From: Pseudobdellovibrionaceae bacterium
Lineage (GTDB): Bacteria; Bdellovibrionota; Bdellovibrionia; Bdellovibrionales; Bdellovibrionaceae
Direction: 5' to 3'
Length of the DNA: 23,321 nt
NCBI GenBank assembly: GCA_039810425.1
Contig: JBDHWW010000043.1
Span: 1-23,321 of the forward strand
Positions 12,001 through 18,000 of the stretch are shown one piece after another. The position numbers were made by a program. How positions within the stretch are numbered: position 1 is the first letter of the stretch; the number at the start of each line of letters is the position of its first letter.

Positions 12001-15000
12001 GTTTCTGGTCTTCTCCCGCCGGTTTTTTTTGCAACTCTTTTTGCACGAGTTCGATGGCCTCGGTTTGCTTCCCCTTAAGTTTGAGTTCGCGAAGCTTCGC
12101 CTGGAACTCGGGACCGGCGAAGGCCGCGGAACTTCCAAGCACCACCACGGCACCCATGAGAGTGTTCGTGAGCGAAATCAAGAGCGTGCTTCCTGAGAGA
12201 TTTTTTGCCTTGGCAGTATGTTTCAACAAGGGCTCCTCCTGAGACCTTAAATATTTGTAATGCACCTTAAATAATGATACCGAATAATCATGGCAAAATC
12301 GAAGAGCAAAACACTTTATGTCTGTCAAAATTGCGGGGCGCAACGTACGCGTTGGGAAGGTAAATGCACCGACTGCGGAGCCTGGAATACTTTCGTCGAA
12401 GAAATCCAAGCCCCCGAGGCTAAGACCCGGGGCTGGTCCGTTGGGAGCGATGAGCGCGCGACGGTGTCATCGAAGCCGGTCCCTCTGGACCAAAGGCTTG
12501 AGGAAATGCATCTGACTCGTTTCGATACGGGTTATGGCGAATTAAACCGAGTTTTGGGTGGGGGTTTAGCAAAAGGCAGCTTCGTTTTGTTGGGCGGATC
12601 CCCTGGCGTGGGCAAAAGCACTTTGCTTTTACAAATGGCCGGAGGCTTGGCTGAACACAAAAGCCGTGTTTTATATATTTCGGGCGAAGAAAGTGTTGCC
12701 CAGACTGGATCCCGTGCTCACAGATTGGGCATCAAATCTCCTTTGATTGAGATCGGCAGTGAAAGCAATTTGCATGCAATCATGGAGTTGGCTCGCCAAA
12801 AAAGGCCGGATGTATTGGTCGTCGACTCGATTCAGACCGTTTACCTGTCGGACCTTCAGGCGGCTCCCGGCTCGGTGTCGCAAGTGCGCGAATGCGCGGG
12901 GCATCTGATGGGTCTTGCGAAACAAGAAAATATCACTGTCATTCTGATCGGTCACGTTACAAAAGATGGCAGCATCGCGGGACCAAAAGTTTTGGAACAC
13001 ATGGTGGACTGCGTGTTGTCCTTTGACGGCGATGCTTCGTACAACTTCCGTCTGCTGCGCTCCCTGAAGAATCGCTTCGGCGCGGCTCAAGAACTCGGCG
13101 TTTTCCAAATGAACGCCAAAGGACTTGAAGAGGTTTCAAACCCCTCAGAACTGTTTCTCGAAGAGCGTGGCAACCAATTAATTGGTTCTGCGGTTTTTGC
13201 CTCGATGGAAGGGACTCGGCCATTGCTTTGCGAGGTTCAGGCGCTGACGCTCTCGAGCCCGATGGCGATGCCACGTCGAACAGCCCTTGGAATCGACGTG
13301 AACCGGTTGCATCTACTAACGGCGGTCCTAGACCGACATCTTGACATTCGACTCAGCCACAGTGACATTTTTATTAATGTAGTTGGAGGACTGAAGTTGG
13401 TTGAGCCGGCGGCGGACTTGGCGGTGGCAGCCGCGATTCTTTCGACGGAAGGCCGTAAAGAGCTTGACGCCAAAATGGTCTTCTTCGGCGAGATTGGACT
13501 GACCGGCGAAGTTCGCGGAGTTTCATTTGTGGAAACGCGCTTGAAAGAGGCCGACAAACTGGGGTTCACTCATTTTGTGCTTCCGTTCTCCAACAAACGT
13601 CACTTAGGAGACTTCAAAATCTCTAAGGATAAAAAAGTGAGTTACATACGCAACGTGCACGAACTTCAGAAGCTGATATAGAACGTAGGAGGGATGCTTC
13701 AAATGTCGACGGAAACAATTGCAACCAGTGGAACAGCCATTGTTCGCGAAACCTATGCCCCGAATGATTTTATTTTCTTCGAGGGCGATATCGAGAGCCA
13801 TTTTTACATCGTAGAAACCGGTGAGGTGAAGATCTTTACTAAAAACAAACTCGGTAAGCGTATCGACATCATGACCGTCGATGCCGGCGAGTCCTTCGGT
13901 GAGTTCGCCTTGCTGGACAACAAGCCCCGCTCGGCGTCTGCACAAGCGATCACTGAGACTTCGCTGATTAAAGTCTCTGCCGAAGGATACGAGCAGCTCT
14001 TGTCGGAGCTTCCGGTGTGGGCCGCGTGCATGATGAAGTCTTTCGTAGTCCGTCTCAAAAACATGACCGATCAACTGCGTGCCAGCGACCAATTTTTGGA
14101 GCGCCAGAAATAGGATTCTAAATGAAGAAAATGATTTTCAAAATGCTGTTTATAATGGTTTTACTTCCGTCAGTATCTTTTGCATCCAGCGAAGCCTATC
14201 GCATCAATAGCGATCTCAGCATTAATGGCAAGCACGTTACCACTGCAAAACTCATTACCAACGCGGGCCAAGAAGCGATGATCACACAAAAAAGCGAAGA
14301 TGGCCTTGAGACTTTCATCGCGGTGACTCCGAGCGAAGGCCAGGGCCAAATCAAAGGACGTAAAGCGATCTTGATGAAGTTCGTTGTGGGCGTGATTGAA
14401 AATGGCGAGCGTAAAGTTCTAGGCCAGCCGCAAATCATGACGGCCGAAAACAGCAAGGCCGAAGTTTCCGTCGGCCGTCCGGGCGACGAGAAAGATTCGT
14501 TCAGCTTAAGCGTTGTTGCGGAGCGAGAGTGAAAAACGCTCCCGTCCGGTTCATATATTAAACCCAAACTAGCCCGTGGTATTTATCAAGCCTTCTTCAC
14601 GGCCTTTTCCCAACGGTCAAGTCGAAGTTTACGGTCCTTCACCGCCATTTCTACCTTGAAAGCGCGGTCGCTCTTCCAGATTTTTTTGATTTCGTTGGCG
14701 TCTTTCCAGAAACCCACGCCCAAACCTGCGAGATATGCGGCACCAATCGCTGTGCTCTCGACGATCTGCGGCCGGACGACCTCTGTTGCCGAGTAGTCGG
14801 CCTGCATCTGCATTAACAAATTGTTCGCAGACGCCCCACCATCGACCTTGATGGAACGCAATTTCTTGCCGAGATCCTTTTGCATCGCCGTTAAGATGTC
14901 GACGTTCTGCAGAGCCATCGCTTCCAATGTTGCGCGCGCGACGTGGGCCTTCGTCGTTCCGCGAGTCAGGCCGCACAGCACCCCACGCGCCTCCGGATTC

Positions 15001-18000
15001 CAGTGAGGCGCCCCCAAACCCGTCAGGGCCGGTACGAACTCGACACCTTCGCTGCTTGCCACGGAAGCTGCGAGTTGCTCAACCTCTGAACTGTGCTGGA
15101 AGAATTTTAAACCATCGCGCAGCCACTGAACTGCGGCTCCACAGATGAAAGCTCCGCCCTCTACCGCGTAAGTCATTTTTTGATCACGTAACTTCCAAGC
15201 GATCGTCGTTAACAAACGTGACTTCGATGCGACTGGTTTGCTGCCCGTGTTGAGCAAAATAAAACTGCCCGTACCGAAGGTGCACTTCACGTCGCCTGCA
15301 TCAAAACAAGTTTGCCCGAAGAGCGCCGCCTGCTGATCGCCCGCAATTCCCGCAACAGGAATTCCATCCGGAATGGCATCGAGGCCTTTTGTGACGCCAA
15401 ACTCCCCGCTCGAAGGTCCAATCTCCGGCAACAACGACTCGGGGACTTCAAACAATTTCAATAGCTCATCGTCCCACCAGCCCGTATGAATATTCATCAA
15501 CATCGTGCGCGAAGCGTTGCTGACATCCGTCTTGTGCGACTCACCGCCGGTCAGACGCCAAAGCAAGAAAGTATCGATCGTGCCCGCAGCGAGTTCGCCC
15601 TTGCGCGCACGCTCTTTAGCGCCCGGGACATTTTTCAAAATCCATTGGATCTTCGTCGCCGAGAAATACGGATCGATCACGAGGCCTGTTTTCTTGTTGA
15701 TGACTTTTTCTTTATTATTACGTTTCAATTTCTCGCAAACGTCCTGAGTCCGACGACATTGCCACACAATTGCGTTATATATGGCCTTTCCAGTCTTGCG
15801 ATCCCACACAACCACGGTTTCTCTTTGATTCGTTATGCCGATTGCGGCAATCTGATCTCCGCGGATACGAGTCTGCTCCATGGTATTTTTCAGCGTATTG
15901 AGCGTTGTCTGCCAAATATCTTCAGGGTCATGCTCGACCCAACCCGGCTGCGGGAATATTTGGCGAAAATCTTCGTTCTGCTGACCGACGAGACCTCCGG
16001 CTTGGTTCACAATCGCTGTGCGCGTGCTAGTTGTACCTTGATCAATGGAAATGATATAACGAGACATAGACAAACTCCTGGGCACCAACCATCATGATAA
16101 ATTTTTTTAGGAAACCCAACGAAAAAGTTTTTAATCTGAGAAATCTCGATCGTGATGTCCTCTTGTTTCGTGTTCTTCCACGTTGGTTGATGGAGCTCGT
16201 CCGCAAATATTTCCGCTTGGAAATCGAGGGCCTAGACAACATACCTCGCAAAGGACCTGTGATTATCGCGCCCAACCACTCCGGCTATATGGGGATTGAT
16301 GCGGCACTTCTTGCACACATTATTGCCCAAAACGCGAAACGCATTCCCCGCATTTTAACCCATCACTTCTGGTTCTTGACGAAAACCACCGCCCTGCCGG
16401 CGCAGAAAATGGGTTTTACCGAAGCCACCTATAGCAATGGAGTGGCCGAGCTGAACAAGCATCATGTCATTGTGATTTTCCCTGAAGGTGAAGCCGGCAA
16501 CTTCAAGCCGACGCAGAAGATGTACGAGCTACAGGAGTTCCGCCGCGGCTTCGTGCGTATGGCTCTAGAAACCGGTGCCCCCATTATTCCGTGTCTTGTG
16601 ATCGGCGCTGAAGAAAGTCAGATTAATTTAAGCCAATTGAAATTAACGAAATTCCTAAAAGGTCTCGTGATTCCATTGCCACTGAACGTGATTCCACTGC
16701 CGGTGAAATGGAAAATTATTTTTCTTGAACCGATTCAGCTGCCGTACGAAAAAAAGGCCGTGAAAGATATGTATCTGATCCGCGATATTTGCGATGAAAT
16801 CCAAGAAAAAATGCAAACAGCTCTTCACAACGAGCTTCGCAAAAGAAAGTCTTTGTTCTAGTCCCCGTCCATCATGATATCTGTCAAATGGTGAAAGCGA
16901 ACCGGCACGGATGGGGCTGCCTTCTGAATTTTCTTTGTCGGGGGAATCACTACCCGCGCAACAGGGTCCGCGTGCTGTATCAGCCCGAGCTGGTCCATAA
17001 TTTCAACTCTACCCGACATCGCAGGAACTTGATCCAAACGATCGTCTGCGAAACTAATGCCTGTAATGAAAAGCGCAATGGCAACTAAGATTACGACCCG
17101 CATAAGAAAACCCCCTTTTGAGATCTTCCTGGATAAGACGATTTTCGACGACGAATCCTCTCGTCCCAAAATGACCTGCCAAAAACCGATTCGGATTGAG
17201 AATCGCCGCGCCTTTTTCTTGATTTTCAAATGCTTTGCCCGAGGTCAAAACGGCTTTCCACCATTGTTTCATTGACTCAAAAAAGCCCGAACGCAGAACC
17301 TCCGGACTGGCTCGGAAAAAAACTCAGCCATCAAGAAAGACAACCAAAGCGTACATCTCCAAGCAAGCAAGAAAAACGGTTTTATGGGTTACCTTGGCCA
17401 GTATTGGAAAGCCTACATAAAAGGCCTCCTCAATGGATAGTGACCAAAGAACAGCAACTAGACTTACACCTTAGAATCGATTCGGGTTCAGCACACCCAT
17501 ATCCACGAACGGTGTTTTATTTTCAACTAAATCCGCGACTAACAAACCCGTCCCGGAGCCGCTTTGCAGGCCGAGCATCTGATGCCCCACGGCCAGCACC
17601 AGATTATTGATACTATCATGACGGCCAATCAAGGGCACACCGTCCGGCGTGCAGGGGCGAAGTCCCGCCCAGAGTTCTTGCACTTGCAATTCTTCCGGCA
17701 GATGCAGGAACTCGCGGGCGCCACGCTTGATGTTTTCAACACGCTTTTGCGTGATGGAAAAATCCTGATCCACTAACTCCAAAGTCCCGGCGATCCGCAA
17801 AGTATTTTGGCGAGGTGTGATCGCGATCTTCTTTTCCACAAGCATCATCGGATACTGCGGTTGTTTTTCCAGCTTTGGAACAATCATCGCATAACCTTTG
17901 CCACCCAGGATCGGCACACGAAGGCGGAGCATCTTTGCCATGCTCTTCGACCAACTGCCCGTCGCAATGATGACTTGCTTTGCCTGGATGTCGCCCGCGG

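Follow-up and report, generated by a model that had tools for sequence, protein, structure and literature searches.

Introduction

Bacteria commit to membrane synthesis at the first acylation, an essential step. PlsD of Clostridium butyricum, a PlsC-like protein, reportedly replaces E. coli plsB, and its host also has PlsX/PlsY. As general routes, the accessible part of the review literature gives only PlsB and PlsX/PlsY (PMC13691511), to which PlsE and PlsM are exceptions. From the portions of the sources at hand, PlsE and plastid GPAT use acyl-ACP (PMC6167442), and PlsM is able to acylate glycerol-3-phosphate (PMC10593935), a precedent for the candidate considered here. Within the phylum Bdellovibrionota, the available part of PMC8067016 reports GlpK and GlpD from nearly all genomes and PlsB from Oligoflexia only. 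A literature search covering few subscription papers returned no paper addressing the pls genes that Bdellovibrio lacks or the function of the acyltransferase of ynb-type clusters.

Methods

The window is the whole stretch of DNA analysed (23,321 nucleotides); its genome (G000) is 99.9% complete and consists of 149 contigs. The order sample comprised 121 Bdellovibrionales genomes, each at least 95% complete, and the phylum sample 201 genomes (67 from the order and 134 from outside it). The window's genome was searched with Pfam models, E. coli proteins and PlsX, PlsY and PlsB profiles built from phylum relatives. Cut-offs were 102.95 bits for the PlsC model TIGR00530 and 300 bits for the OlsA models. 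A strong match to the acyltransferase T4 in the order sample was defined as E<1e-60, and its adjacency to glpK was counted by comparing the coordinates of both genes by eye. Tn-seq data were from B. bacteriovorus 109J (6 samples), with counterparts assigned via gene order and not sequence. The 109J essential list also contains flagellar genes.

Results

The preliminary description had stated that GpsA, PlsX, PlsY and PlsB are lacking throughout the order, and the larger sample bears this out. PlsY (PF02660), PlsX (PF02504) and the C-terminal domain of GpsA (PF07479) are over cut-off in 0 of the 121 order genomes, with 8, 8 and 10 of 14 control genomes positive, respectively. The PlsB domain GPAT_C (PF19277) occurs in a single order genome (G015), the window's own genome being negative, and in 1/14 controls. 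The one weak PlsY match in the order sample is, in our own reading, a PspC-like protein. Within the window's genome there is no PlsY, the matches to the GpsA N-domain are UDP-glucose dehydrogenase and ProC, E. coli GpsA and PlsB find no match, and the phylum-relative profiles of PlsX, PlsY and PlsB pick up nothing except the acyltransferase T2, weakly, with the PlsB profile. Diverged versions of the four enzymes were not found there with Pfam, E. coli proteins or phylum-relative profiles, and the plsX slot between rpmF and fabH is empty. As also stated earlier, the later genes are present (cdsA, pssA, pgsA, psd and a Cls-like PLD, with Cls below cut-off). The gap in the first acylation is real and order-wide.

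Replacement of GpsA by a G1P or glycerol dehydrogenase was rejected, since none of the five genomes tried has one over cut-off and the sub-cut-off match in the window's genome is a PurE-like frame. GlpF, GlpT, GlpQ and UgpB have no blastp match at E<=0.01 in the window's genome, and an annotated glycerol-3-phosphate transporter in 109J has a W of 0.33-0.80. GlpD is present in 120/121 order genomes and glpK in 118/121. GlpD as an essential reverse source was discarded because RS12785 and RS12795, in its expected 109J slot, have W near 1, although this assignment is unsure. The glpK counterpart EP01_RS09580 is dispensable (W 0.94-1.22), and GlpK would be one of several routes to glycerol-3-phosphate. 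Glycerol-3-phosphate could be scavenged by overlapping routes rather than made by GpsA, namely by GlpK acting on glycerol, by a UgpQ-like phosphodiesterase, by GlpT where present and perhaps by GlpD run backwards. A predatory life, the presence of DgkA in the window's genome and the lack of a known de novo glycerol-3-phosphate route would also suit a cell that performs no de novo first acylation and re-acylates lysophospholipids or monoacylglycerol from prey or medium. This is barely credible, however: E. coli Aas matches only its ligase part in the window's genome, with no Aas acyltransferase domain found, the essential list for prey-free growth includes ACP, FabD and FabG, and host-independent 109J grows in peptone-yeast extract.

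Only four GPAT-fold acyltransferases (T1 to T4) were found in the window's genome, and none is a GPAT_C protein of 600-850 aa as expected for canonical PlsB. T1 (C23:39587-40348) is PlsC-like and scores 89.8 bits with TIGR00530, under the cut-off. T3 reaches 120 and 112 bits on the OlsA models, also under cut-off, so that OlsA is its nearest family only. T2 (C17:16978-17757, minus strand; 260 aa) lies outside the window behind cdsA2, a degenerate YnbB-like gene, and T4 (255 aa) lies in the window next to glpK.

The glycerol kinase gene glpK occupies 14586..16067 on the minus strand (TIGR01311, 694.5 bits; cut-off 590). In the ORF list the gene starts with a TTG (16088); an AGGAG lies 7 nt upstream of the ATG at 16067. 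A gap of 26 bp (16068..16093) separates the divergent start codons and contains the glpK ribosome-binding site, and the promoters of both genes would have to sit within the opposite gene. T4 (g02601; 16094..16861, plus strand) matches PF01553 with 62.9 bits and PF03982 with 23.6 bits (cut-off 22). Its conservation head to head with glpK, described earlier, holds: T4 is strong in 106/121 order genomes at 45-86% identity and adjoins glpK in 100 of these 106. It is absent in 11 of the 121 and weak in 4, including the closed G008 and the near-closed G083, both of which retain glpK.

This linkage had led to T4 being put forward as the best candidate for the first acylation, i.e. as a glycerol-3-phosphate acyltransferase. 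Its conservation speaks for this, as does the presence of T4 orthologues in 5 of the 20 outside genomes without PlsY, PlsB and T2, including the same-class G231. We nevertheless consider this assignment highly improbable, as it fails on presence, PlsY/PlsB co-occurrence, active-site residues and Tn-seq. Besides the order genomes that do without a good T4, the glpK-T4 pair stands beside PlsX and PlsY in G193 and G179, and PlsY co-occurs with a T4 orthologue in 25/32 outside genomes. The motifs H62-X6-D69 (21/21 aligned sequences) and FPEGxxGNFK are present and the phosphate-binding Arg of block III is absent. The 109J counterpart, EP01_RS09585 as matched by gene order, tolerates transposon insertions (W 1.76-2.66), so that T4 is not indispensable where PlsX, PlsY and PlsB are missing. 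T4 is probably not the missing essential enzyme. Of the preliminary interpretation, the order-wide gap and its filling by a PlsC-fold protein stand; T4 as that protein probably does not. As had been noted, T4 scores far below the PlsC model (28.1 bits); its PF03982 match and widened His-Asp spacing are those of DIESL/DGAT2-like proteins, and its atlas neighbour is TMEM68 (feature score 0.96). T4 is TMEM68/DIESL-like and DGAT-like and probably acylates a non-phosphorylated glycerolipid. It may be an accessory enzyme of salvage that acylates, probably, mono- or diacylglycerol derived from prey lipids; DgkA could phosphorylate the product.

T2 (g01586), which the preliminary description had mentioned as an alternative because it lies beside a second cdsA, passes the same four tests. 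It is single-copy in 120/121 order genomes, and the sole genome without it (G116) also lacks glpK, glpD, T1 and T4. In a set of 10 genomes with T4 missing or weak, 9 retain both T1 and T2, and these two are the only acyltransferases of the four in the reduced genomes G008 (closed, 98%) and G018 (99%). In the phylum sample, T2 orthologues are confined to the 67 order genomes plus G167 and G189; PlsY is found in 0/69 of these carriers and PlsB in 1/69. In the order sample, G015 has PlsB and T2 together. The 109J counterpart EP01_RS10390 (putative T2 protein WP_011165276.1) has 0 sites in 6/6 samples and belongs to the essential list; the third acyltransferase annotated in 109J is not needed. H77-X4-D82, K104, R128 and FPEGTR159 are invariant in 38/38 T2 sequences and align with PlsC of T. 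maritima, in which Arg159 is believed to bind the phosphate. The HX4D dyad, FPEGTR block and GPAT/PlsC fold place T2 in the glycerolipid acyltransferase superfamily. The T2 model (mean pLDDT 73.5) matches PlsC (5KYM; Z 15.8), GPAT1 (14.1) and squash GPAT (14.0), folds that have no power to separate first from second acylation. T2 is annotated as a 1-acyl-G3P acyltransferase and is nearer in sequence to PlsC than to any GPAT (E 6e-15 vs 0.004), scoring 64.4 bits with TIGR00530, under the cut-off.

A natural swap in family f25 gives indirect evidence on function. G167 and G189 carry cdsA2-T2 and lack PlsX, PlsY and PlsB; G193, of the same genus, and G179 carry both PlsX and PlsY and neither T2 nor cdsA2. 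In G167 and G189 the slot between rpmF and fabH has cleanly lost plsX, and in G189 plsY is missing between two conserved neighbours (24-bp gap). Because all four genomes keep a YihG-like second acyltransferase (that of G189, L202, by locus pattern only), the function lost is the first step. Contamination was ruled out by composition, with cassettes and host genomes matching in tetramers (r 0.96, 0.95) and GC3, and the f25 T2 sequences group as a single clade within the T2 tree of the order. T2 would have replaced plsX and plsY on two occasions, one in the ancestor of the order and one following transfer into f25; these independent gain-and-loss events are two only, and another gene may have travelled together with the f25 cassette.

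The swap also bears on whether roles are reversed or shared, with T1 acting first and T2 second, or T2 doing both, as PlsM can. T1 lies under the PlsC cut-off, the phosphate-binding Arg is kept in both T1 and T2, and PlsM and PlsB2 each act on G3P and LPA (according to the accessible part of PMC10593935). Such an arrangement is very unlikely, since G167 and G189 replaced PlsX/PlsY with no T1 orthologue, which excludes T1 as the general first enzyme. Moreover, T1, pgsA and pssA are 'ND' only in 109J and not on the essential list, a status shared by T1 and other lipid genes that suggests T1 is needed beside T2.

GpsA is absent in the f25 relatives that have PlsX and PlsY, so its loss is not coupled to the swap of the acylation enzymes. 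If T2 instead acylated DHAP, followed by an unknown reductase, GpsA and GlpK would both be dispensable, in line with the absence of GpsA from the order and the dispensable glpK of 109J; T2 relatives also include the acyltransferase domains of ElbD-like reductase-ligase-carrier fusions (ether-lipid synthesis). We give this scheme little credence, however: PgsA still requires glycerol-3-phosphate, GpsA is also missing where PlsY, a glycerol-3-phosphate user, is present, acyltransferase activity of ElbD has never been detected, and no reductase gene accompanies T2.

The companion gene cdsA2 is nearest to E. coli YnbB (35% over 130 aa). PF01148 is still over cut-off, and the KD...GHGG..DR.D signature is no longer intact: GHGG has become GRG(D), with His changed to Arg in 86/86 copies, the first Asp of DRxD is lost in 85/86 copies, and the remaining Asp is lost in G106 and G078. 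This motif loss supports a putatively dead enzyme. In 109J cdsA2 tolerates insertions; canonical cdsA does so too (W 0.39-1.15), which allows for overlap in function between them. T2's nearest outside relatives are found in ynbA-ynbB-acyltransferase rows or as fusions to a YnbC-type methyltransferase; neither ynbA nor ynbD was found in the window's genome. T2 would stem from such a cassette, with a decaying ynbB copy (cdsA2) retained upstream.

This origin, together with the E. coli YnbB paralogue serving MPIase and not bulk phospholipid, might suggest that T2 and cdsA2 do another essential job (e.g. an MPIase-like glycolipid) and that a protein without a known acyltransferase fold performs the first acylation; the 20 phylum genomes without PlsY, PlsB and T2 would fit. 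It appears unlikely, as it leaves the coincidence of cassette gain and plsX/plsY loss in f25 unexplained, and T2 is kept in G018 with no cdsA2 nearby while cdsA2 tolerates insertions. We also regard as unlikely that T2 and a rewired YnbB-like cdsA2 form a new two-protein, horizontally portable entry replacing PlsX and PlsY one gene for another, with a chemistry unlike that of PlsB/PlsY (DHAP acylation, or glycerol acylation followed by CTP-dependent phosphorylation by cdsA2) that frees the cell from GpsA.

Discussion

We consider it likely that T2 makes lysophosphatidic acid and T1 completes phosphatidic acid, with glycerol-3-phosphate scavenged by redundant routes. T2, as a stand-alone PlsC-fold protein, would transfer the acyl chain of acyl-ACP or acyl-CoA to glycerol-3-phosphate, and T1 would add the second chain before canonical CdsA, PssA/Psd, PgsA and Cls, whose genes are present, finish the pathway. 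Neither PlsB nor PlsX/PlsY is in use across the order as a whole, to which the model predator B. bacteriovorus belongs. If correct, T2 would represent a further family of first acyltransferases, a single essential candidate backed by a natural swap; it would assign a first function to the acyltransferase encoded in the widespread ynb-type clusters, and metabolic models of this predator, which is under study as a living antibiotic, would be corrected. GPAT_C is present in 86/201 phylum genomes here, in contrast to the Oligoflexia-only PlsB in the accessible part of PMC8067016. Since PlsY, PlsB and T2 are all absent in 20/134 outside genomes, further solutions for the first step exist in the phylum, and these 20 need yet another enzyme.

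Both candidates have described relatives. T4 shares with TMEM68/DIESL and DGAT2-like proteins a PF03982 match just over cut-off, a wider His-Asp spacing and the absence of the block III Arg. According to the available part of PMC10482677, DIESL is a diacylglycerol acyltransferase; its dyad is HX5D (His130, Asp136), whereas T4 has HX6D, is bacterial and glpK-linked and has a putative substrate. Compared to the ynbA-ynbB(-acyltransferase, -methyltransferase) clusters, T2 is core in the order, and its 109J counterpart is essential. In both sequence and fold, T2 is closest to PlsC of Thermotoga maritima (5KYM; rmsd 2.8, 188 residues), with identical catalytic and phosphate-binding residues; PlsC, however, acylates lysophosphatidic acid, whereas T2 tracks the loss of the first step and falls well short of the PlsC cut-off. 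PlsM of mycobacteria (Rv2182c/MSMEG_4248), compared by description alone from part of PMC10593935, is like T2 PlsC-sized, HX4D-bearing and essential in a cell with no PlsX/PlsY, but works at sn-2 beside PlsB2, whereas T2 would work without any PlsB. The T2 profile has no match to PlsE/plastid GPAT (1K30/1IUQ-type) among PDB sequences at E<=1, and the squash fold score is tied with those of other members. PlsE of Chlamydia and plastid GPAT are, as proposed for T2, first acyltransferases of the same fold that are neither PlsB nor PlsY (from the part of PMC6167442 available); they are soluble and about 360 aa long, whereas T2 has 240-260 aa, a conserved N-terminal extension and a predicted amphipathic helix.

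Absence of the standard first-step enzymes

We searched 121 genomes of the order Bdellovibrionales with a completeness of 95% or more. None has a PlsY, a PlsX or a GpsA C-domain over the model cut-off (0/121 each), and one (G015) has PlsB GPAT_C above it. The order-wide absence claimed in the preliminary description is thus upheld for the genomes sampled, and the control genomes gave the same response as there (8, 8, 10 and 1 of 14). Two control genomes, Bacteroides thetaiotaomicron and Corynebacterium glutamicum, have no PlsY, PlsX or GPAT_C over cut-off; either the gap extends beyond the phylum, or the models miss the enzymes of these two species. 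Searching the genome studied here with E. coli GpsA and PlsB, and with profiles of the PlsX, PlsY and PlsB of the phylum, gave nothing except a weak PlsB-profile match on one acyltransferase, T2. The plsX slot of its fab cluster is empty, rpmF being followed directly by fabH, and cdsA, pssA, psd, pgsA, a Cls-like enzyme and dgkA are present. The PlsB-like gene of G015 (600 aa; locus L040, C1:16705-20691) adjoins an acyl-CoA dehydrogenase-like gene, has the same size as the family f18 form and is possibly a late gain. Named relatives of the proteins of the genome studied here are assigned to Bdellovibrio and Bdellovibrionales.

The glycerol kinase-linked acyltransferase

With Pfam and four home-made profiles we find four GPAT-fold acyltransferases in the genome and none beyond: PlsC-like T1 (C23:39587-40348); T2 (C17:16978-17757), immediately downstream of a second PF01148 gene (cdsA2); T3 (C70:9672-10511), whose nearest family is OlsA; and T4. 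The last (255 aa; window 16094-16861, plus strand) matches PF01553 and, marginally, the DAGAT family PF03982, and its start codon is separated by 26 bp from that of glpK (14586-16067, minus strand), identified by a glycerol kinase match. T4 had been put forward as the best candidate for the first acylation, and two observations favour this: the tight linkage to glpK (100/106), and the fact that 5 of the 20 genomes outside the order without PlsY, PlsB and T2 carry T4. However, of the 121 order genomes 106 have a strong T4 match and 4 a weak one, and T4 is absent from 11, of which 10 retain glpK. A phylum sample of 201 genomes has T4 orthologues (E<1e-50) in 32 members that do not belong to the order; PlsY is present in 25 of these 32, and PlsB as well in 19 of the 25. 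The same glpK-T4 pair is found in G193 and G179, both with PlsX and PlsY. The active site of T4 (H62-X6-D69, FPEGxxGNFK) is without the arginine thought to hold phosphate in PlsC. In the Tn-seq study of Duncan et al. (2019; PMC6561027), in which host-independent B. bacteriovorus 109J was mutagenised in peptone-yeast extract, the T4 counterpart RS09585 tolerates insertions (fitness 1.76-2.66). The closest named eukaryotic cluster is TMEM68/DIESL, and DIESL is described in PMC10482677 as a diacylglycerol acyltransferase. Given its distribution, its co-occurrence with PlsY, the missing arginine and the Tn-seq data, T4 is probably not the first acyltransferase of the pathway, and a first-step glycerol-3-phosphate acyltransferase activity seems highly improbable for it.

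The row PilZ, glpK (RS09580), RS09585, two further genes, hutI and Hsp20 in 109J follows the gene order of locus L077. In the window, genes for a putative secreted protein of 123 aa and for an FAD enzyme resembling D-amino-acid dehydrogenase (PF01266; both in 16858-18784, minus strand), which do not lie at this place in L077, separate T4 from a 64-aa ORF with a prepilin-like start (18843-19037, minus strand), which falls under the ORF listing threshold. This ORF shares 60% identity over 56 aa with the small ORF behind T4 in L077 and equates by gene order with 109J EP01_RS09590 (Bd2719.5), which predation requires (fitness W 0.01-0.05). A 143-aa protein with no Pfam match (19042-19473, minus strand) is conserved in relatives, where its counterpart also neighbours hutI (L077, 71%; L073, 30%).

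Distribution of T2 and a natural swap

T2 had been named as an alternative, and it fits the distribution, a swap outside the order and the Tn-seq data. It is single-copy in 120 of the 121 order genomes, a count that takes in a fragment at a contig end (G066) and a diverged copy (G018, 44%). The sole genome without it, G116, is also without glpK, glpD, T1 and T4. The only acyltransferase seen in G116 (one contig, 1.5 Mb, 95% complete; L045, L251) is an OlsA-like T3; this organism may have abandoned phospholipid synthesis, or the assembly may be incomplete. A search of all PF01553 genes in 10 genomes in which T4 is absent or scores weakly showed that 9 keep both T1 and T2, and that G008 and G018, from two different families, have these two only, leaving two enzymes for two acylations. 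Of 80 named loci, 79 have cdsA2 upstream of T2, and the remaining one lies at a contig end.

Two of the 134 genomes from outside the order, G167 and G189 of family f25, carry a T2 orthologue (66% identity). Both lack PlsY, PlsB and PlsX, whereas G193, from the same genus, and G179 encode PlsX and PlsY but not T2. In both T2 carriers plsX has been cleanly lost between rpmF and fabH; plsY has been lost between two conserved neighbours in G189, with a 24-bp gap remaining, and the loss in G167 is larger. In both, cdsA2 accompanies T2, and the cassettes resemble their host genomes in composition. The two copies form one clade (100/99) inside the order's T2 tree (50 rows), with only moderately supported nesting branches, so that the pattern represents two independent events, not 69. 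Because a YihG-like enzyme is retained on both sides of the swap and f25 has no T1 orthologue, the step that swapped enzymes is the first acylation. The exception to the mutual exclusion of T2 and PlsB is G015, which carries both. PlsY, PlsB and T2 are all missing from 20 genomes outside the order (nine of f21; G231 of f14; f17, f22 and f26-f29; four of f20), which likely have a further first acyltransferase of another type. In G231, PlsX and GpsA are missing as well; it carries two PlsC genes together with T3, T4 and a ligase-carrier-acyltransferase fusion.

Transposon insertions in 109J

We assigned the 109J genes of PMC6561027 by gene order only. The row serA, sigma-54 regulator, cytidylyltransferase RS10385, acyltransferase RS10390 and MBL hydrolase is that of locus L078, making RS10390 the T2 counterpart; it shows 0 insertion sites in 6/6 samples and appears among the essential genes listed there (276 rows, flagellar genes among them). 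Site counts are given for essential genes only. Fitness is 0.94-1.22 for glpK and 0.32-1.00 for cdsA2. RS05215 (T1, behind a TIGR04552 gene) is scored 'ND', as are pgsA and pssA, and is not on the essential list; RS13475, assigned to T3 by elimination, has a fitness of 1.5-2.0.

Features of T2 and its neighbour cdsA2

H77-X4-D82, AAK104DY, R128 and FPEGTR159 are invariant in 38 of 38 T2 sequences, and a 30-residue N-terminal extension is conserved and poorly modelled. The closest match in sequence and fold is T. maritima PlsC, followed at a short distance by human GPAT1 and squash GPAT; the modelled fold does not discriminate between substrates. Among 1.84 billion representatives searched, T2 forms a tight family, followed by proteins with the same extension, some fused to a YnbC-type methyltransferase, and by domains in ligase-carrier-acyltransferase and ElbD-like fusions; the best plasmid match sits in a ynbA-ynbB-acyltransferase row. 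cdsA2 is YnbB-like but altered, the GHGG His being Arg in 86/86 and the first Asp of DRxD lost in 85/86, positions that we take to be metal-binding. It is absent within 20 kb around T2 in G018, where T2 has been relocated to two genes from pgsA (L252, contig C13). cdsA2 may be dead, redundant or repurposed. The canonical cdsA (C1:71194-72069; 109J EP01_RS11225) tolerates insertions in 109J, with a large spread (W 0.39-1.15); this is unusual, and cdsA2 possibly covers for it.

Source of glycerol-3-phosphate

GpsA is missing in all four f25 genomes whether or not PlsX and PlsY are present, and its loss is therefore a separate matter. GlpK (118/121) and GlpD (120/121) are near-universal in the order, as noted before in PMC8067016, and the genome studied here has a UgpQ-like enzyme. 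In 109J, none of glpK, the transporter and the phosphodiesterase is essential singly. The simplest reading is that glycerol-3-phosphate comes from redundant scavenging, from prey or medium; reverse action of GlpD, or use of an acyl-DHAP route, is possible.

Comparison with known acyltransferases

Taken together, we think it likely that T2 makes lysophosphatidic acid and T1 completes phosphatidic acid, with glycerol-3-phosphate scavenged redundantly. What the data show are the absences, the distributions, the swap, the motifs and the published insertion counts; the substrates and products of T2, T1 and T4 and the source of glycerol-3-phosphate are inferred. Our literature search, which covered sources other than subscription papers and bioRxiv supplements, returned no paper that describes this gap or assigns a role to T2. 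By the membership tests of the PlsB, PlsY and TIGR00530 PlsC families, T2 lies outside all three. In sequence, T2 gave no match at E<=1 to enzymes of the PlsE and plastid GPAT type, and its fold match to them tied with those to other members of the superfamily; a kinship with PlsE is possible. It would carry out the first acylation as a small GPAT-fold enzyme, and in this it would resemble PlsM and PlsE, as well as PlsD, likewise a small GPAT-fold enzyme reported to carry out this step.
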